A DNA stretch of 38,540 bases. It comes from a virus (Duplodnaviria > Caudoviricetes). Positions 19,864 to 28,981 of the stretch are shown one piece after another; the stretch's first letter is position 1; each line of letters starts with the position of its first letter. The DNA lies in IMG/VR virus record IMGVR_UViG_3300038478_000051, positions 1 through 38,540 of that record; one strand, written 5' to 3'. The translations under genes and the position numbers were made by a program. A model generated the notes under the pieces. That model saw nothing but the letters and a program-made list of their open reading frames with translations, searched no databases and was not told the DNA's origin.

Positions 19864-21741
19864 TTAATCGCTCCTTAATCCTTTTGGTAAAAAGTACGTC
19901 TCTAAATCGTAAATTTCAAAATAATCAGCGCTTGATTCTATCATCTGCCATTGCCATATCTTACCGGTTTGAGATGCGATTGGCATCCGCTGGCTATTTC
20001 CCCCTGTTGAATCCATGGTAGACCGGTCAAGATAAAATGAAATGTCCAATAGATAGGCAGACATCCCCTGTAGAGAAATTTGTCCCTGCTGCGTCATTCC
20101 CCCCATATCAACTTGGCTTGAAAAAGTAAGCTGTGTGTTTTCTCCCTGAGAATATTTTCCATACAAGTATTTCCATTTGAACTTTCTTGCCGGATCAGGC
20201 ATATATCCCCTTGATTGAATGGTAGCCTTAATATTATTCCCATTATCGGTATAGAGTGCTGGATTAAACTTCATTACCAGTCCTGTCCCTGCATTTGGAC
20301 TCCCTGCAATCTGTGTAGCATCGGTAAAGTAGATTTGTGCTTGCCCGGGAATAAGGCTTGTTGCGATATATCCCATATTCTTTCCTGTCATTGTGGTGAA
20401 GGGGTAGTTCTTTGATGATATTTCCCATGTATCTAGCACTATTACTTCATTGTTGACAGATGATCCATTAACCGGAATTGCCCAGTAAGCATACCTTCCA
20501 TCAAACCCTCCTTGTATTCCTGGAATTGCGGAAATGGTAATATTACTCATTGTCCCACGTATTACGTCCGATACTATTCCTCCATCAAGGGTCACCGCAA
20601 ATGAGGTTTTCGTCACTGACCTGATGACAGGGGTATGTCCTATCATAGAAAAATAAAGAACATCGTTCCCGGTATTAACCAAAGAAAAAGGAGCCGTTGT
20701 TCCATAACCGAATATCCTCCCATTAAGGTTTTGCCCTGCAGCGGTAGTGGACGCAAATGTTGACTCGGACCATCCGGTAATTGCCCAAATAGTTCCCTGC
20801 TTAAAAATTAGTAATTCATCCTGGATGATTGCGAGTCCCGTAATCTGGTCAGAGTCCCCCGGATTAATATCAACATAGTTTGAACCAGGATAGGTTGTCG
20901 GGTCCCCAATGTTAGAAAAATATAAACGGTTTGGGTAACTAACATTATTTGCAATAAACATGTAAGAGTGGTACCACTTTGCATAATACCCTATAGGAAC
21001 ACCATAGCGATTTATCTGAAGACGTGTCCCGTTAAAATCCACTTCATTTATTCCATTAAATCCAAAGAGGTAATTGTTTGCTGCCTCAAACCAGATTGGC
21101 TTATTATTTGGCAAACTAGGACGAGGAGTGCCATTTGTTGCAGTTGAGCCGGTATCCGTATAGGGAGAGGACGTTGTGTTGTAGTATTGCGCCTCGGCTC
21201 CTGATGCTGTACCGCGATAAACGTTGTATGAAGTGGCACCTGGAACTGATGGGAAAGTGATAGTTATGGTGTTGGTTGATGTCCCTGATGGTACAACAAT
21301 AGATGCCTCGGTAGACGCCATTCCTTCGCCTGTCGCATTAAGCGCAGTCACGACATAGTAATAGGTTCCGGGAATAATTGTCCCTCCCGTAGTTGCGGTT
21401 GCGAGGGAGGGGGCTGACGAAGGTCTGCTATTAAAAGAAAGCTCCGTAAAACTTCCTGTTCCAGTCCAAATATAATAATTTGAAAAAGAAGATCCGCTAA
21501 GGTTTGTTATTAAATAATATTCTTGGGCCGCTAAAAAATTTAAAGCGCCTAAGCCATTAAATGAACCATTACTAATAGCAGGAGCAATAGGGCTAGAACC
21601 AAAAACCTTTGAAACCTTATTGTCTGAAAGAAATACATTATTAGCAATAGTTAAATATCCCTTTGGGACAATTTGATAGGGGTCCCGATCATTATATCCA
21701 TCAAAGGATGATTCTATAATAGGTTTATCTGTGAACTGAAT
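19864..21741 (-). CDS. Tail nozzle/head-closure beta-propeller protein (P22 gp10 / tail tubular B-like), extended to a probable ATT start, 625 aa
   Basis: NRLYFSNIGDPTTY...GDSDQITGL...LLIFK motif. The frame stays open 130 codons upstream of the GTG at 21351 up to TGA at 21748-21750; SD-like AAGGAGAGTGA precedes ATT at 21741. Confidence 0.75.
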   Translation of the reverse strand: MQFTDKPIIESSFDGYNDRDPYQIVPKGYLTIANNVFLSDNKVSKVFGSSPIAPAISNGSFNGLGALNFLAAQEYYLITNLSGSSFSNYYIWTGTGSFTELSFNSRPSSAPSLATATTGGTIIPGTYYYVVTALNATGEGMASTEASIVVPSGTSTNTITITFPSVPGATSYNVYRGTASGAEAQYYNTTSSPYTDTGSTATNGTPRPSLPNNKPIWFEAANNYLFGFNGINEVDFNGTRLQINRYGVPIGYYAKWYHSYMFIANNVSYPNRLYFSNIGDPTTYPGSNYVDINPGDSDQITGLAIIQDELLIFKQGTIWAITGWSESTFASTTAAGQNLNGRIFGYGTTAPFSLVNTGNDVLYFSMIGHTPVIRSVTKTSFAVTLDGGIVSDVIRGTMSNITISAIPGIQGGFDGRYAYWAIPVNGSSVNNEVIVLDTWEISSKNYPFTTMTGKNMGYIATSLIPGQAQIYFTDATQIAGSPNAGTGLVMKFNPALYTDNGNNIKATIQSRGYMPDPARKFKWKYLYGKYSQGENTQLTFSSQVDMGGMTQQGQISLQGMSAYLLDISFYLDRSTMDSTGGNSQRMPIASQTGKIWQWQMIESSADYFEIYDLETYFLPKGLRSD

Positions 21742-21759
21742 TTTAAATCACTCTCCTTT

Positions 21760-21852
21760 TTACCGTATAAAATAGTTTGCCGCATAAATAAGAATAAGAA
21801 TAATTACAATTAAATAAATTAAATACAATAGTATCCATCCTAAATTTTTCAT
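21760..21852 (-). CDS. 30-aa single-TM peptide (MKNLGWILLYLIYLIVIILILIYAANYFIR)
   Basis: Read manually; fills the gap between the adaptor and nozzle genes. Confidence 0.5.
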   Translation of the reverse strand: MKNLGWILLYLIYLIVIILILIYAANYFIR

Positions 21853-21868
21853 TATTTTGATAGCTTTG

Positions 21869-22603
21869 CTACCAAGGATCGTTAATTGAAAAATCAAGAT
21901 CCTCTGCACTATCTGATTCAATCATCCATGGTCCATCTTGCTGACGTATCTTGAGGTATGTTTGCATCTCCATAATCCCCTCATCATAAAAATTTTTATA
22001 CTTTGTGGCAGATGCTTCATCCTGTTGTCCTTTAGAAAGTAATTTTGAGGCTGCCTTGTATTCAATTAATTCTCCAAACCGGTCTGCAAAAGGAATTCGA
22101 ATTGGATCGGTAAAATTAACTAAGTTGCTCACTGCCTGGATACCCCAAACGGAAATTGATTGTCCGGTGGTATCTGCCTGTTGCGGAATAGGAACAAATC
22201 CAATATATTGCTGGTCCGGTGGTCCATGCAGGTAATAGCCTGCCGAGAACACCGATCCTTGAGTAGACATATTCCGAAGGTTGAGTAGCATTTCAGACGA
22301 CTTTATACTTGCTGCCTTTATTGGCTGGGACTCCGGATCTTGGGGAGAATAGTTAATTTCAACTCTTGTCACCTTTAAAAGACTATTGTCGATTTCATAT
22401 TCTTGAACATTTGATTGGATTGCATAGGTAAAAGGGGTGATTGTTTCATAATATGCCTCATAGACCTCCATTACCTTACCTACCACATCCTGATAAGCAT
22501 AGTTTACCGCATATAAAACCTCCGCATCTTTCCAATCGGCGGGGGTTGTTTCGTCAAGTAAAGTTCTAGTCTGATTGTAAATATCCTGATATTGTTTTGC
22601 CAT
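21869..22603 (-). CDS. Head-tail adaptor (tail tubular A / P22 gp4-like)
   Basis: R.LLDE....W.D.EV...VN.A N-terminus and P.P...IP..F..LI.Y.AA pattern; downstream of the capsid gene. Confidence 0.7.
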   Translation of the reverse strand: MAKQYQDIYNQTRTLLDETTPADWKDAEVLYAVNYAYQDVVGKVMEVYEAYYETITPFTYAIQSNVQEYEIDNSLLKVTRVEINYSPQDPESQPIKAASIKSSEMLLNLRNMSTQGSVFSAGYYLHGPPDQQYIGFVPIPQQADTTGQSISVWGIQAVSNLVNFTDPIRIPFADRFGELIEYKAASKLLSKGQQDEASATKYKNFYDEGIMEMQTYLKIRQQDGPWMIESDSAEDLDFSINDPW

Positions 22604-22605
22604 AG

Positions 22606-22914
22606 TTAGTTACGTTGAACGGTTAGCCAAACATGGGCTACCTCATCACCTTTTAAACCAATAGGCTTCATAGAAAAAATATTTACCTTGATATCCCCGA
22701 TTTCCTTCATATGATCTGCTGGCTGATAAAGGAGTCCTGTTTCAAATTCTTCCCCGTGATTAACTTGCCAATTAAGAAGTAATTCGCTTTTTGAAACAAT
22801 AAGAATATCTTGGAATGAATGGGGATGATAAATAGAAATACCCTCTACTGGAACATCAAATTCAAAATGTTCAACCGCGTGGATAGTTTCGTCATTAATA
22901 ATAATTGATTTCAT
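22606..22914 (-). CDS. Hypothetical protein
   Basis: ORF with its own upstream promoter TTGACA(23009-23004)-N18-TATGTT. Confidence 0.6.
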   Translation of the reverse strand: MKSIIINDETIHAVEHFEFDVPVEGISIYHPHSFQDILIVSKSELLLNWQVNHGEEFETGLLYQPADHMKEIGDIKVNIFSMKPIGLKGDEVAHVWLTVQRN

Positions 22915-23026
22915 AGTTTCAGGTGGAATATGATTTCAAGCCTTCGTGCCCAAAAGGTCTCCATGCATACTCCACCCTTAACATATCAAACTATAGCTTT
23001 ATATGTCAATAGAACTAATCCTAAGA

Positions 23027-23609
23027 TTAGGTCTTAATTAACACACCTCCAAGGGTACGTAACCCTGAGACACCATAGATCGAGTCACACGTTACTAACC
23101 ATGCGAGATATGGTAACCAATAGGCTGCCATAAGTCGTGGTGCCATTTGAACCGCTAACACGAGAGCTTCCTTTTGGAAGAGAATGTTATTGGTTTGATT
23201 TGGCGTTGATATAGTTACCGGAACATTATTTGTGTAATAAACCGGGAAACCATAGATATTTCCCCACAGATACCGGTTGTTTGGACCGATTTGTGCCCGC
23301 TGTGGTTTCTGATATTCGCCTTGATAGTCAGCCCTTACAAATTTATCAATTTGCAGGATTGCGGCTATCTGAGAGGGAGCTAACACCATAGCCCGTCCTT
23401 CCATAGGAATATCATTGATGTTTAATTGGTTCATTCCTGAAACAATTGTTCCATCTGAAATATTTTGTCCGTATTGACCCTGTGCGCTGGTTGTAAAGGT
23501 CGTATAGTTACTAAATGTGTCGCTGTCAATCTGTTTCGCGATGGCATAACCACATTTTTCACTGTACAAAGACCTAAGGTCATAAGCTGCCTGTATAGCA
23601 GGCATATCT
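23027..23609 (-). CDS. Major capsid protein, exon 2 (HK97 fold, P22 gp5-like)
   Basis: YDLRS.Y....GYAIAKQID, GR.MVL.P, GNIYGFPVYYTNN and D.IYGV..LR motifs. Confidence 0.88.
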
Positions 23610-24537
23610 CGTTTTGTTATCGCAAGCTTTCTATTTCTTGCTTCTCTATATTCCTATAGAGTCCTGGTCATATCACCCCTTTCGGGACGGGCGCTAATGA
23701 AGTTTATTGTTTTCCTACTCACCTTCTGACCGACGCACCTTCTCACTACTAATTGGAATTTGTGAGCTTGGCTCAATATGTCCCACTTTTTCAGTTGGGG
23801 ATTCTATTGAATTCACCCGTTTATTCAATTGAGCTAAATTGTGATAATAAGCTTTTGTTTTGATCTTATGGCAATCCTTGCAAAGAGTTTGTCCATTATT
23901 GGTATCATAAAAATATTCATCTTGGCAATCAAATTCGTTTGGATTATTATTTATTAAATCTGCCAACGGAATTATGTGATCGGATTCTAATTTTCCTCCT
24001 CGCTTATTACACATTTGACAAGTCCAATTATCTCTCATAAAAACAAATTGTTGCCATGCATAATATTTATCCGTTGTCCGAACTTTATGTGCCTTTTTGG
24101 TTACTCCACCTTTCCATTTTATATTTCGTTTTCCTTTTCTATCTTTTGCAAAACAACTAAGGGAGCAATATATTCTTGGAACAGATGGTCTTATCTTTAT
24201 TTGCTTTCCACATGTCTTACAATTTCCATATGTAGTTCTTTTTCTACATTCAAGACTACAATGGAGCTTGTTTCCTTTCTTCACAAAACTCAATCGCCTT
24301 GTAAAAGATTTTCCACATGTTTGACAAATAAATGTTCTTGAATTTATTCGGCGCTTATCCAACATCCAACATTTTTGAGAACAATATTTCTTTTGATACC
24401 ATTCAGGTTTCCACAAATCGATGTTACAATAGAAACATTTACGCATGAATCTATTATACCATAACTTCTTATCACTTGTAAAAGAGCAAACCCTTTTACT
24501 TCTACCTTAACTCAAAGGTCGAAGATACTTATAGTTT
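23610..24537 (-). ncRNA. Group I intron (928 nt) in the major capsid gene
   Basis: P3 ACGGGTG(23820-14)/CGCCCGT(23693-87); P4 TTCAAT/ATTGAG; P5 TCCC/GGGA; P6a CTCAC/GTGAG; P7 GGTCA(23731-27)/TGACC(23670-66); P8 CCC-GAAA-GGG; P9 CTCTATA-GGAA-TATAGAG; terminal G at 23610. Removal restores the reading frame. Confidence 0.88.
23715..24446 (-). CDS. Intron-encoded HNH homing endonuclease with multiple Zn-finger repeats
   Basis: Three CxxC...(Y/H)CSxxC units, WKGG, RDNWTCQMC...DHIIP...NGQTLCKDCH; the 3' end runs into the intron core. Confidence 0.88.
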   Translation of the reverse strand: MRKCFYCNIDLWKPEWYQKKYCSQKCWMLDKRRINSRTFICQTCGKSFTRRLSFVKKGNKLHCSLECRKRTTYGNCKTCGKQIKIRPSVPRIYCSLSCFAKDRKGKRNIKWKGGVTKKAHKVRTTDKYYAWQQFVFMRDNWTCQMCNKRGGKLESDHIIPLADLINNNPNEFDCQDEYFYDTNNGQTLCKDCHKIKTKAYYHNLAQLNKRVNSIESPTEKVGHIEPSSQIPISSEKVRRSEGE

Positions 24538-24815
24538 TCGAGCTGGAAGGTTGCTTCATACCATTTATTGATATAAATCGTTGTTCCAGTTTCGGTAATT
24601 GCCTGTGTTTGTGTCGTTTGATTCGGTTGCTTTGCGTTTGCGACCAAATTGCTAACATTAGGCACAGTAATTGCCTGACCTTTTGCCTTCACTTGAGAAT
24701 CTAACCTTTTAACCAATGGCGCCAATACTAACGCTGTCTCTGTGGCCCTTAGCACGTCTAAAGACCAGATTGTTGGCAGAAAAATAGCTGCCGTTGTCGT
24801 TGTAATATTGTGCAC
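24538..24815 (-). CDS. Major capsid protein, exon 1
   Basis: F.P.IWS..VL, G.AI.VP and I.INKWYE..F motifs; SD AAAGGAGGTGA before GTG. Spliced length is 278+583=861 nt (286 aa). Confidence 0.88.
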
Positions 24816-24891
24816 TTTTTTTACTCACCTCCTTTCTAAAATATTGATAATTCAATATAATCATATTTACATTAATATATATGCATTCCCA

Positions 24892-24940
24892 CAAAAAAAC
24901 CTCTCAATTAATAAGAAGTTCTCATTAGATAAAGAGGTCT
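24892..24940 (-). terminator. Possible intrinsic terminator between scaffold and capsid genes
   Basis: ACCTCT...AGAGGT stem with a large AT-rich interior, followed by a T-run on minus. Confidence 0.4.
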
Positions 24941-24945
24941 TTTAT

Positions 24946-25680
24946 TTAGTAACCAGGTGTCTCTGGTTTCCAAGATTCCATAAGTTTTTGAATCTTATCA
25001 AAATTCTTGTTATACCATTCCGGTCCATCAGGTTGCTGTAATCTTGCTTCCAATTTCTCAGGTGTCCATTCGGGAGCTACCGTTGTTGCCTTTGTAGGCC
25101 GTATCGGGTTTGTTGTATTCTCTCCTCCATTAGTCCGACCCATTGATTGGAATTCTTCAGGATACATTTTATATTTAAAAACATCTTCAAAATCATAATA
25201 TTGAAATTGAGGATGTCTAGCCATATAATCTATCACTTCAGTCCTATCGAATTTGGGAGCACCTTCTTGCCCTTGATACCGCATCTCAAGATTATTGAGT
25301 CTCATCTCAGCTCTCACCCCTCCAATTCCTTTATTAATTTCATTCTTAACAAAGTCCTGAGTACTCATTCCCGCTGCTTCCAGCGTTGTTAATGCCGCTT
25401 TTATTTGCGGATCATTAGGATCTATTGCTGGATTTAAATTAGGGTTTGGATTTACAGGATTTTGTGGATTGGTGTTCAGCTTTGATCTGGCATCATTACG
25501 TTCCCGGATCAATTCCCGGATACGATCTTGGGTACTGCCTGACAGCTTACTAAATTCTAATTCCTCTTCGGTTTTGATAACATTTTCATCTGCTACCCCC
25601 GTAGGTTTGTCTTCTGGTGAGGAAGCCGGATCTTTCGGGTTTTCCGGGTCTAGAAGGGACTCCAATTTGTCTTCGTCCAT
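24946..25680 (-). CDS. Capsid scaffolding protein
   Basis: Acidic N-terminus and QDRIRELIRERN coiled coil; lies just upstream of the capsid gene; SD AAAGGAGGTGA before ATG 25680. Confidence 0.75.
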   Translation of the reverse strand: MDEDKLESLLDPENPKDPASSPEDKPTGVADENVIKTEEELEFSKLSGSTQDRIRELIRERNDARSKLNTNPQNPVNPNPNLNPAIDPNDPQIKAALTTLEAAGMSTQDFVKNEINKGIGGVRAEMRLNNLEMRYQGQEGAPKFDRTEVIDYMARHPQFQYYDFEDVFKYKMYPEEFQSMGRTNGGENTTNPIRPTKATTVAPEWTPEKLEARLQQPDGPEWYNKNFDKIQKLMESWKPETPGY

Positions 25681-25765
25681 TCTAATCACCTCCTTTCCGT
25701 TGGGTTAAGCCCACGAATCTGGATGTTTAATAGATTCCTCCTACCTGTTACGTTCTCAGGTTACG

Positions 25766-26062
25766 TTACTTTTCTTTGGGTTGATTGTTTACATCTCCTA
25801 CATTTCTTGGAAATATCCGACCTGGACCATAATATGATGCCTTATCCATTTCAGGATTAATTACGGAATCAGATTTACCACTTGAATGGTCAACCTGGTT
25901 TTGTTTTGTTGGGGGAAGATCTTGATCTAATTGTCCTGAATTATGAAGGGGAAGCTTGCTGTCTGAGGATGTGCCAACATGCCGTCCTGGACCAGCGTAA
26001 TCAGTTTTACTGAATTCGTGGTCATCGTGACTTGATTTACCTTGTCCAAAATTATCAGCCAT
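25766..26062 (-). CDS. Hypothetical hydrophilic protein
   Basis: ORF in the head module. Confidence 0.6.
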   Translation of the reverse strand: MADNFGQGKSSHDDHEFSKTDYAGPGRHVGTSSDSKLPLHNSGQLDQDLPPTKQNQVDHSSGKSDSVINPEMDKASYYGPGRIFPRNVGDVNNQPKEK

Positions 26063-26104
26063 ATATTTAATATATAAAATTAACTCTTACTATATAGAAC
26101 TCTA

Positions 26105-26338
26105 TCAATAATCCTCGTTTGTGTCAAGTAGTCCATATTGGCTCCGTATTGCGTGTTGGGTTTCATCAAAGTTGTCCTGAAAAGTTCCAGTCTTTCCAAT
26201 AGGCATAAAGATGCCATTCTCATCCACTGGGATATCAGGAGAAAATTTAATCCCTTTAGGAAGGAACTTTTTCATTTGAGCCTCTTCAGCCTTTATGCGT
26301 CCAATGTCGAGTAAATAGGTATCAATAGGTATTTTCAT
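26105..26338 (-). CDS. Hypothetical protein
   Basis: ORF in the head module. Confidence 0.55.
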   Translation of the reverse strand: MKIPIDTYLLDIGRIKAEEAQMKKFLPKGIKFSPDIPVDENGIFMPIGKTGTFQDNFDETQHAIRSQYGLLDTNEDY

Positions 26339-26340
26339 AA

Positions 26341-26511
26341 TTATATTTTAGGAACATGAATCCGTCCTTGAGCATGAATCGGTTTTGGATGAACAATTTC
26401 AGGTCTTTTAACATCAACACTGCGAGGAGATTTCACTGAAGGCTCATGAACCTCCAATGATCCATATCTGACTTCCCTTGGTAACGGCATTGACCGTGAT
26501 GCTCCAACCAT
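26341..26511 (-). CDS. Hypothetical protein (56 aa, MVGASRSMPLPREVRYG...)
   Basis: Read manually; exactly fills the gap between neighbours. Confidence 0.5.
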   Translation of the reverse strand: MVGASRSMPLPREVRYGSLEVHEPSVKSPRSVDVKRPEIVHPKPIHAQGRIHVPKI

Positions 26512-26515
26512 AGTG

Positions 26516-26710
26516 TTATTTTTTCTTCATTCCTCTTAATTTTTCAAGCGTTTTTGCTAGATTTGCCTCTTTCCCCACTTTTCCTCCCTTATCGGCTGCC
26601 TTATTCAGTTTACTTTGAGGAATTTTTTGACCTGGGGGCACATTGAGCGCTTTATGCAATGCTCCTTTATTCTTAGTTGCTCCTGCGATCCAATCCTTCT
26701 TATCAGCCAT
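26516..26710 (-). CDS. Small basic phage protein (WIAGA...GALHKAL.VP.G.KIP..KL...ANLAKTL)
   Basis: Recognisable conserved phage head-region small protein, with an upstream TTGACA promoter. Confidence 0.7.
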   Translation of the reverse strand: MADKKDWIAGATKNKGALHKALNVPPGQKIPQSKLNKAADKGGKVGKEANLAKTLEKLRGMKKK

Positions 26711-26755
26711 ATCACTCTAATTCATATCATATCAAAGGATATCGTGTCAATACAC

Positions 26756-28981
26756 CTATTGCTGTGGAGGCATTTGAGGCGGTGGCCCCCCCTGGGGTGG
26801 CATCTGTCCTCCTTGGGGAGGCGGCATACCTTGAGGTGGCGGCTGCCCACCTTGAGGCGCACCTCCCTGCATAATGGGTTGGCCTTGCTGCATTCTTGCT
26901 CTTGCCATCTGTCCTATGATGGCAGGCAACATTTGTGCTGCCTGTTGGACACGGGGCGATGCAGGTCCATCATTTCCCTGTTGTTGAATCTGGGCATTTC
27001 GGGTTTTATCCTGTGGATGAACCGTTGAACCATGCCTAATAAATGCCTCATGTTTTGCAATATGTTCCATAATAATCTTATCCTGGCCTTGTCCAAGAGC
27101 CTGCTGGTGGACTGCGATATGGACAAGATGATCCTCTGAGGCATCCACAGGCACTAATTTGCCTTGTTGGAGCATAATCTCATTTTCAGAGAGAGCCAAC
27201 CCATATTGGTCTTCATTGCCAGTCATTTGTCCATTTTGCTGATTTTGTTGTGCGGATGCCAAATTGGTTTGTAATACCTGTTCAAGCCTTGTCTGTTGGA
27301 CAATATCATCAATTTGTCCGAATTCAAGAAGACGTAAACCTGTTTTTTGGTCAATCCAGCCCATTTCACCTAATTTCATCACCTTTTGCTCCATTACATC
27401 TTTGGTGTAGCCTAACCATGAGCCAATTGTCACACGAACAAGGTTCTTTTCACCTAATATTGCCAAATCAACAAAGTCAGGACCTATTTTTATCTGTTTT
27501 TTCTTTGATGTTGCCAAATCTCCGCCGCCCGAACCACCAATAATAGCAAAAGCTTTCTCTTCTTTACCATTTAGCCCCATATCATAGATAAATTGGTACT
27601 TGGAGATATTACGCGCTGCACATTTGAGTACCTTTATAGCAACATTTTCTAAAAAGTCCTCTAGGTTGTCTGTTAGGTCCTGCTGGTTGGTCGCATCAGC
27701 CGAGATTAAGGCATTAACCATATCTCCAGAGCGTGATCCGGGAGCATTTCTACCCAATGTTGAATCATGGATGCCTCCAATGTCTTGGGCAACAAGCATC
27801 ATGCGGTCAATTTGCTGGGGAACCGAGATTGGGAGTGCGGGAATATCCATAGCTGTCACCTGTGAACCCCTATTTTTTGTAATAATTTCACCATTTACAT
27901 TGTGAATGGCTGATACCCCTGCATCCCGGTCAACCAATATCCTTCCTTTGGCAACACGCGAATTGTATTCAAGCACATCGGATTCAAGCTTGTTAATAAC
28001 CCTATTAATCGGCATAATATCCTTCATCCAGCCTTCTCCATACAACTCTTTTGGATTAATATCGGCACGATACACCTCCCATGGATACTCATCGTGTTTT
28101 TCTCTTTTGAAAAGAAGGGGACGCGAATTCTGTTTTGTCCATTCAACCCGCTGCATATACCGTTTGCCGGTAACCGGATCATAGCGCCTAAAATATCCCC
28201 GATAAAGGATAATGTTCTGGGCATCATCATAGCCTGGAAGGGTTGTCTTTAAAGCTTGGATCATAAATTGTTTATATTCAGAAACAGCAAGCTGGGATTC
28301 GGGTGAAGTAATTTCGGCAATTGCTATATCATTATATTCAGGGTTGTTTCGGATTACTCCAAGCTTGGTTCTGATTGCCAGGGTTGCGTGGTCTGCCGAT
28401 TCATCTAAGTCCCCTGAGTCCATGAAGCGGTCTGGATAAAAATCAAAGGGGTCTGCCAAGTACATTGAGACATCCTTTTTATTCACATCAAAGAATATTT
28501 CCCATGGACCACCAATTGAGGTGATCAGTCCTTGGGTCATTGTTTCCTTAATTTTTGTTTTAAGCTTGTTCACGTCATACCAATAGTCCAAATATCGTCC
28601 GGCATAGCGCGCCTGAACTTGTGACTCAACTCCCGGATACCGGGGAAGAATTTCAAACTTAGGACGAAAAGAGGTTGCCTGATTACGGATTGAGCGCATA
28701 AAGGCTTTAGTAATGTTAATGGGAACCTGAGCCTTCTGCCTGGATGCAAGGATCACAGTTTGTGAGGATGGAAGGTATTTTGAGAACATGTAGCCGCGGC
28801 GGAACATATCCCTGATCATCCATTCATAGTCATATCGCTTTCGGGCATCCGCATCATTCTGAAATTCTCGTTTACAATAGGCAAGGAAATCCAATTCATC
28901 CATGATTCCCGGATCAAGCGAATCGCGGTTTGAGATCATTCCTGCGTCTACGTTATCTTTTAATGTTTCATCTGGGTTCAT
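26756..28981 (-). CDS. Portal protein (P22 gp1-like) with Q/P-rich C-terminal extension
   Basis: 741 aa, directly after the terminase region; DPFDFYPD, YGEG..KD..P....INK, GIHD..LG...SG and DH..HI..H motifs. Confidence 0.88.
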   Translation of the reverse strand: MNPDETLKDNVDAGMISNRDSLDPGIMDELDFLAYCKREFQNDADARKRYDYEWMIRDMFRRGYMFSKYLPSSQTVILASRQKAQVPINITKAFMRSIRNQATSFRPKFEILPRYPGVESQVQARYAGRYLDYWYDVNKLKTKIKETMTQGLITSIGGPWEIFFDVNKKDVSMYLADPFDFYPDRFMDSGDLDESADHATLAIRTKLGVIRNNPEYNDIAIAEITSPESQLAVSEYKQFMIQALKTTLPGYDDAQNIILYRGYFRRYDPVTGKRYMQRVEWTKQNSRPLLFKREKHDEYPWEVYRADINPKELYGEGWMKDIMPINRVINKLESDVLEYNSRVAKGRILVDRDAGVSAIHNVNGEIITKNRGSQVTAMDIPALPISVPQQIDRMMLVAQDIGGIHDSTLGRNAPGSRSGDMVNALISADATNQQDLTDNLEDFLENVAIKVLKCAARNISKYQFIYDMGLNGKEEKAFAIIGGSGGGDLATSKKKQIKIGPDFVDLAILGEKNLVRVTIGSWLGYTKDVMEQKVMKLGEMGWIDQKTGLRLLEFGQIDDIVQQTRLEQVLQTNLASAQQNQQNGQMTGNEDQYGLALSENEIMLQQGKLVPVDASEDHLVHIAVHQQALGQGQDKIIMEHIAKHEAFIRHGSTVHPQDKTRNAQIQQQGNDGPASPRVQQAAQMLPAIIGQMARARMQQGQPIMQGGAPQGGQPPPQGMPPPQGGQMPPQGGPPPQMPPQQ

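Follow-up and report, generated by a model that had tools for sequence, protein, structure and literature searches.

A 928-nt group I intron (23610..24537, minus strand) interrupts the major capsid gene of a Caudoviricetes virus, and RNA assembled from peat carries the two exons joined at its boundaries, with exon 1 ending in A. The U·G wobble at the 5' splice site, a hallmark of group I introns, is replaced here: base -1 is A, and its predicted partner in the internal guide is U. We consider it probable that this intron, which bears an HNH endonuclease gene, splices itself after the A, with an A-U pair predicted in place of U·G and an ordinary core that tolerates the exchange. The window analysed is the whole 38,540-nt stretch of IMG/VR record IMGVR_UViG_3300038478_000051. 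An earlier note, made from the letters alone, had placed an intron in the capsid gene behind an exon ending in A; this observation is confirmed, and its coordinates and sequence are as given there.

The record is linear (38.5 kb) and encodes a terminase, a P22/SU10-like portal, a likely scaffold gene and, on the minus strand, the split major head protein. Runs with a matching stretch come mostly from peat, with permafrost and small lake shares. Capsid exon 1 (24538..24815, minus strand) starts with GTG and ends in UCGA, base -1 being A24538 and the break falling after the second base of the Glu93 codon. Exon 2 (23027..23609, minus strand) is delimited by the open frame, a homologous protein and the joints in RNA contigs. 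The joined protein matches the PHROG 267 major head protein (E 4e-37), and its relatives in cultured phages reach at most 31% identity among 10 of the 20 records listed. Elsewhere in the record, the minus-strand open frame 21741..19864 has an ATT codon with AAGGAG upstream that would lengthen a 495-aa ORF by 130 codons; positions 21429-21714, in the region of this possible extension, are covered by an RNA contig of run X5.

Excision of 24537..23610 yields the 286-aa capsid that the earlier note had derived, reading YEATFQLEDM across the junction. The same reading is found in P0001, an intact capsid of 286 aa that starts with V and comes from a 1,106-nt JGI contig, library type not stated. The note had named homologues lacking the Glu at this position as grounds for abandoning its junction; Glu93 is in fact kept in 214 of 216 homologues (112 of 114 in a smaller set) and Asp94 in 215 of 216 (113 of 114). 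The span around the junction measures 21 residues without indels in all 216. Near the site, 24538/23610 is the sole G-ending in-frame join that gives a full-length L-E-D.

Three metatranscriptome runs (X4, X5 and X8, of 11 listed) were examined, all from peat, and in two of them assembled contigs skip exactly 928 nt, which answers the RNA check proposed in the note; such contigs report the presence of the joined form only, and not strand, level or splicing efficiency. The X5 contig is 745 nt long, with a depth of 896 and no differences from the window exons, and the X8 contig has a depth of 14; both studies are 2024 peat libraries and may be a single campaign. Coverage in X5 is confined to three separate stretches of 6 kb, a pattern expected of RNA rather than DNA. 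Neither X4 nor the DNA run X15 has a contig over the junction. The joint is ambiguous by 1 nt only, so there is no repeat available for a template switch. In one register exon 1 ends at A24538 and the intron in G, in the other the exon ends at A24537 and the intron in A, and the last exon base is therefore A in either.

The exact joint occurs in none of four DNA runs (X1, X3, X6 and X15, the last without junction coverage). Both intron junctions are present in the DNA of X1 and X3, and the joint is absent there. In run X6 a near-identical strain is present, and its capsid gene occurs there as two intron-less alleles at depths of 54-65, against 3.9 for a minor intron-bearing contig. These alleles have equal length and encode the same F-Q-L-E-D-M with many differing letters at the site, so that the RNA joint does not derive from them; because the joint matches the window exons where the X6 alleles differ, it has the intron-bearing haplotype. 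As a separate observation, the differences between the X6 alleles and the window are dense near the insertion (15 in 87 nt, and 7 in 90 nt of exon 2) and look synonymous, and both alleles lack the UCGA^A site (window region 24560-23520); the changes possibly represent escape from the intron nuclease. In the same strain, window positions 24799-24884, before and at the capsid start, give way to a different sequence of 855 letters, which may be a further intron or a nuclease gene standing on its own.

The predicted internal guide (24519..24528, minus strand) pairs over 10 bp across the ligated junction, as claimed in the note. Positions 24528-24523 would form P10 with exon 2 bases +1 to +6, U24522 would lie opposite A(-1) in the seat where relatives have G, and 24521-24519 would pair with exon bases -2 to -4, giving a P1 of four exon-side pairs. 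When the first 60 bases of the intron are shuffled 20,000 times, 229 of the shuffled sequences (1.1%) pair over at least 10 bp. A U·G pair was not found at or adjoining the window's 5' splice site, P1 and its extension included. At the U-ending junctions 24541, 24533 and 24547 guide pairing comes to 4, 4 and 7 bp, and the in-frame U-ending alternative weighed in the note drops Glu93, as the note had said, and has no guide. U-ending junctions were rejected in both the window and its sister intron, since they lose a conserved residue and lack a guide.

Downstream of A(-1)/U24522 come three pairs and then a C that opens P2; the base four places after the partner seat is likewise C in 24 of 42 tabulated introns, a count whose script printed a competing register for the window. 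P2 is a predicted long-range duplex that joins 24506..24515 to 23829..23838 (both minus strand) and closes the nuclease loop, at -9.9 kcal/mol in the window and -18.6 in the sister; its 5' strand holds the in-frame stop of exon 1 (24509-24507). Local folding prefers a long exon helix as P1; A(-1) faces U in this helix as well, but the helix draws on the P2 strand, and we rejected it. Long-range P2 occupies the strand of this competing register, and a two-piece fold removes the competing helix. A blind scorer that ignores the -1 pair ranks the window junction first and the sister's true junction second; it is noisy, having missed the true junction without its P2 term and given U·G the top rank at no more than 23 of 52 loci, and blind junction scorers were for this reason dropped from the survey.

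The catalytic core (23665..23820, minus strand) comprises P3, P4, P5, P6/P6a, P7, P7.1 and P8. In the core alignment P3 runs from 23820 to 23687, P4 spans 23810-23773 and P7 spans 23731-23666, and the segment with P9, P9.1 and the 3' tail (23610..23661) ends in omega-G. Core positions carry Tetrahymena numbers. P7.1 is present between P7 and P3', and we label the intron tentatively as IA3-like. All 11 helices pair in the window, among them the P3-P7 pseudoknot, the P4-P6 domain, P8 and P9. Across 23 aligned cores 93.9% of cells are paired, and two-sided changes are seen at 36 of the 49 pairs; none of 500 shuffles scores as high, a control that kinship among the cores inflates, and slid controls give 35-38%. 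The guanosine-binding pair G264-C311 is G-C in 23 of 23 cores, with the bulged C263 at 23732. Terminal omega-G (G23610) is present in one of the two registers that the RNA joint allows, and the family tail motif together with the sister's unique register favours that one.

The J4/5 receptor adenosines (equivalents of A114 and A207, at 23803 and 23779) are invariant in all 23 cores, window included. The pair U262-A312 (23733/23665) is shared by window and sister and absent from the other 21 aligned cores, and it recurs in L118, a locus canonical by eye. Confined to the window are an A-U as the top pair of P4 (the other 22 cores have G), a C at the A206 seat and a G at the A301 seat. The unusual G261/G265-C310 P7 was rejected as an explanation of A-U, being common to dozens of U·G relatives, with A261 in L351 and L369. 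The J5/4 change from A206 to C is weakened as a compensation by its absence from the sister; junctions could not be called at the other J5/4 variants (L073, L097 and L192). Candidate core compensations for A-U are accordingly weak. A search with group I models, suggested in the note, returned no group I match in Rfam (RF00028) at E <= 1 over positions 20000-28000; one-model group I searches are known to miss subtypes (PMC6125680).

The closest relative of the window intron is found at two loci (L353 and L368) that differ at 4 positions in 1,721 nt. Its core is 78% identical to that of the window (branch support 100/99), and its nuclease is 55% identical to the window HNH protein over 199 aa. 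The two form one clade on a long branch (0.26), and the window core keeps compensatory changes relative to the sister. The sister interrupts the same capsid family at codon 91 rather than 93, 6 nt upstream. Judged by P0249, an intact intron-less 287-aa capsid that is 99% identical in exon 2 and reads F-E-V-E-D, a 962-nt excision after UCGA fits best (3 differences); only the UCGA^A junction does so, and no shifted register is available. The sister guide is again UUCGA, the P10 part differs and matches its own exon 2, and pairing totals 9 bp. Both introns therefore share the UUCGA guide, and each lies at UCGA^A inside a Glu codon; of 67 capsid genes inspected, 14 have TCGAA at codon 93. Since the sister has the same A-U pair and guide at another site, A-U is a trait of the lineage and persisted through a shift of 6 nt. 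The two introns probably belong to a small natural lineage of RNAs that splice themselves with no wobble at the cut site. This lineage would have moved once, keeping A-U, by guide-directed re-insertion or by mis-registered homing.

The core pattern finds an estimated 1,200 or so stored stretches in the viral collection, and a narrower set of relatives shares either the G261/G265-C310 P7 or the 3' end (36 loci). Exact-core patterns gave 58 and 8 matches in viral contigs, at chance level only, and were discarded. Among cultured phages no intron relative was found beyond one weak 34-nt match. The survey of relatives' -1 bases that the note had called for shows 40 of 40 curated others ending exon 1 in U with G opposite, calls that comprise 37 made by script and 3 others, with junctions picked by eye knowing the U·G rule, in a table that holds same-site copies (7 are flagellin), and with chance U·G candidates in 49 of 50 search windows. 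Outside the 42-row tally, U·G was assigned by eye at L195, L207, L220, L230, L236, L240, L248, L355, L369, L334 and L338, whereas L199, L217, L365 and L386 were left uncalled; duplicates were also left out. Protein evidence supports U·G at L202 and at the capsid-family sites L329/L351, L333-335 and L338. These last loci are the three other places at which group I introns interrupt the capsid family; they lie near codons 32-34 and 112 and are all U·G. L202 had been a candidate for a non-canonical site and was rejected, since homologue P0129 and a second guide register lead to U·G. A P1 of 4 bp is the commonest form among the U·G relatives.

Several observations concern the relatives themselves. 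Of the genome matches to the G261/G265-C310 P7, 17 of 19 are Bacillaceae flagellin introns, and flagellin introns of this type were noted at L258-L275 (17 loci), L218, L224-L226, L232, L239 and L251-L253. At L358 (about 2230-2290) the start of the capsid gene is broken by an insert of about 50 nt, immediately upstream of a full intron; the insert ends in G and contains a hairpin resembling a U·G P1, with no core. Two group I introns lie in tandem in capsid or neighbouring regions at L199, L227 and L386.

The HNH endonuclease ORF (243 aa, 23715..24446, minus strand) sits in the P2 loop and runs into the core (Pfam PF01844, E 2.7e-6; PHROG HNH families). Part of it is covered by RNA contigs in X4 and X5, and in X5 the nuclease RNA is identical to the window in the same run as the joined capsid RNA. 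A candidate sigma-70-like promoter for the nuclease (24453..24482, minus strand; 11 of 12 positions, extended -10, 6 nt before the ATG) is the best of 12 sites, where shuffles give 7.5 sites, and recurs at equal spacing in the sister. The intron nuclease genes of L353, L196, L215 and L250 likewise have a -10 box 6 nt ahead of the ATG and no obvious ribosome site, as in the window (24482-24446), which suggests that these genes may be expressed leaderless from an internal promoter. The intron presumably homes by means of its HNH nuclease. A search from the nuclease side gave 11 loci, 0 of them with an intron core motif on the same strand.

In the mechanism that we propose, the intron would follow the ordinary two-step guanosine route, with the cut site set by the position and register of the helix. 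The guide U, three pairs above the base of P2, would take the seat where relatives most often have G; backbone contacts would dock P1 on the J4/5 adenosines, which are unchanged, with only the G-amine contact lost; and a P10 of 6 bp would align exon 2. Self-splicing, the A-U pair in the docked helix and selection by position are what we infer from these features. A return to U in this codon would cost the Glu, which 214 of 216 homologues retain. A contact between the amine of G22 and A207 has been described for the Tetrahymena, Azoarcus and Twort ribozymes (PMC1891724); with U as the partner it cannot form in the window, and the receptor adenosines are kept nonetheless. For the Tetrahymena ribozyme, P1 undocking rises about 80-fold even when this pair is C-G (PMC1891724), which argues that some compensation is needed.

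Such compensation could reside in the core, which would then have been re-tuned for A-U, so that restoring U·G would not help or would even harm. The long branch of the two A-U introns, their shared U262-A312, the window-only changes at the top of P4 and at the A206 and A301 seats, and the survival of the A-U pair across a move between sites all fit this reading. We nevertheless regard it as unlikely: the A114 and A207 equivalents are unchanged, the window-only changes are missing from a sister that is also A-U, U262-A312 occurs at a locus canonical by eye, and two related introns amount to one event rather than covariation. This is the reading of the earlier note, which had proposed a variant ribozyme with altered splice-site recognition. 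Its group I assignment, A-ending exon, predicted U partner and joined RNA (in two assemblies) stand; altered recognition is unproven, and the invariant receptor adenosines, a P7 type common to U·G relatives and the U262-A312 of L118 do not bear it out. A broader version, in which a mobile lineage combines an A-U specificity built into its core with efficient, protein-free splicing of the essential, strongly expressed capsid mRNA and guide-led retargeting between UCGA^A sites, is one that we entertain only tentatively; it would imply a class of insertion sites invisible to U-filtered databases.

Help might instead come from a protein, whether a host chaperone, a phage factor or the HNH protein as a maturase, holding a weak P1 that has only four exon-side pairs, lacks the wobble contact and competes with a helix that local folding prefers. 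But no other P1 length is as frequent among the U·G relatives as 4 bp, the competing helix is gone from the two-piece fold with long-range P2, and the core is complete; we know of no HNH maturase, and consider the need for a protein improbable. It is more improbable still that the intron splices poorly or never, the joined RNA stemming from an allele that lacks the intron and has the same flanks, with co-infection maintaining the intron-bearing genomes. The dominance of intron-less alleles in X6 would suit that account, as would the intact capsids P0001 and P0123, the latter again of unstated library type. Yet the X6 alleles differ at many bases around the site, where the RNA joint is an exact match to the intron-bearing allele; a run with the joint also has nuclease RNA of the window's own sequence; and the core has kept its compensatory changes with respect to the sister. 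Splicing after A by an ordinary core that tolerates the A-U pair is the reading that we prefer.

The U·G wobble has been treated as a strict requirement, with exceptions already published. One review counts it as one of only two sequence requirements for trans-splicing ribozymes (PMC6155759), and a group I database of 2025 removed 16,427 hits that do not follow a U (PMC11835236). Should the core function after A unaided, targets for trans-splicing and RNA-circularising ribozymes would widen, and a class of phage introns would be escaping intron finders. Together with its sister at another site, this natural intron, which lies in an essential gene and for which joined RNA is documented, offers a ribozyme pair for asking what the wobble contributes and what can substitute for it. 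The finding should surprise ribozyme specialists, with RNA-level support for the joined form and catalysis predicted; new here is the sister with the same A-U trait two codons upstream in the same capsid family.

Known departures from U·G are of other kinds. C-A is a wobble shaped like U·G, and the A-U of the window, a Watson-Crick pair with the purine on the exon side, is unlike the C-A of tmRNA introns in this respect. That C-A pair occurs at -1 in 15 of 883 tmRNA group I intron sequences and resembles the window in that exon base and guide base are changed in a matched way (PMC11915505). Base -1 is described as virtually always U and exceptionally C, and BcISt1 splices after G, as seen by RT-PCR (Tourasse et al. 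2014, PMC4227781). Like the window intron, the group B IStrons to which BcISt1 belongs are natural group I introns with a 5' exon that does not end in U and with spliced RNA in vivo; they cut after G, keep a U-G shifted by one base and carry a transposase (PMC4227781), which is of the IS200/IS605 or IS607 type and sits at the 3' end, whereas the window has A, no U·G in P1 or its extension, and an HNH nuclease. With an HNH ORF in its P2 loop and no U·G beside the site, the window intron lies outside that group. The published natural exceptions that we found are C and G, none A: a natural A at -1 was not encountered in the accessible parts of the literature searched (PMC12355055, PMC3984707, PMC11878797, PMC6125680, PMC6155759, PMC2504315, PMC11394858, PMC10457212 and PMC8598970 among them). 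Introns are also known from the flagellin genes of Bacillaceae (Hayakawa and Ishizuka, as cited in PMC3984707), and Bastillevirinae carry IA3-like intron clades (PMC11878797). With IA3-like introns of bacteria and phages the window intron shares the core layout with P7.1, the P9/P9.1 elements and an inserted nuclease gene, but every such relative that could be called has U·G at its 5' splice site, in contrast to the A-U of the window.
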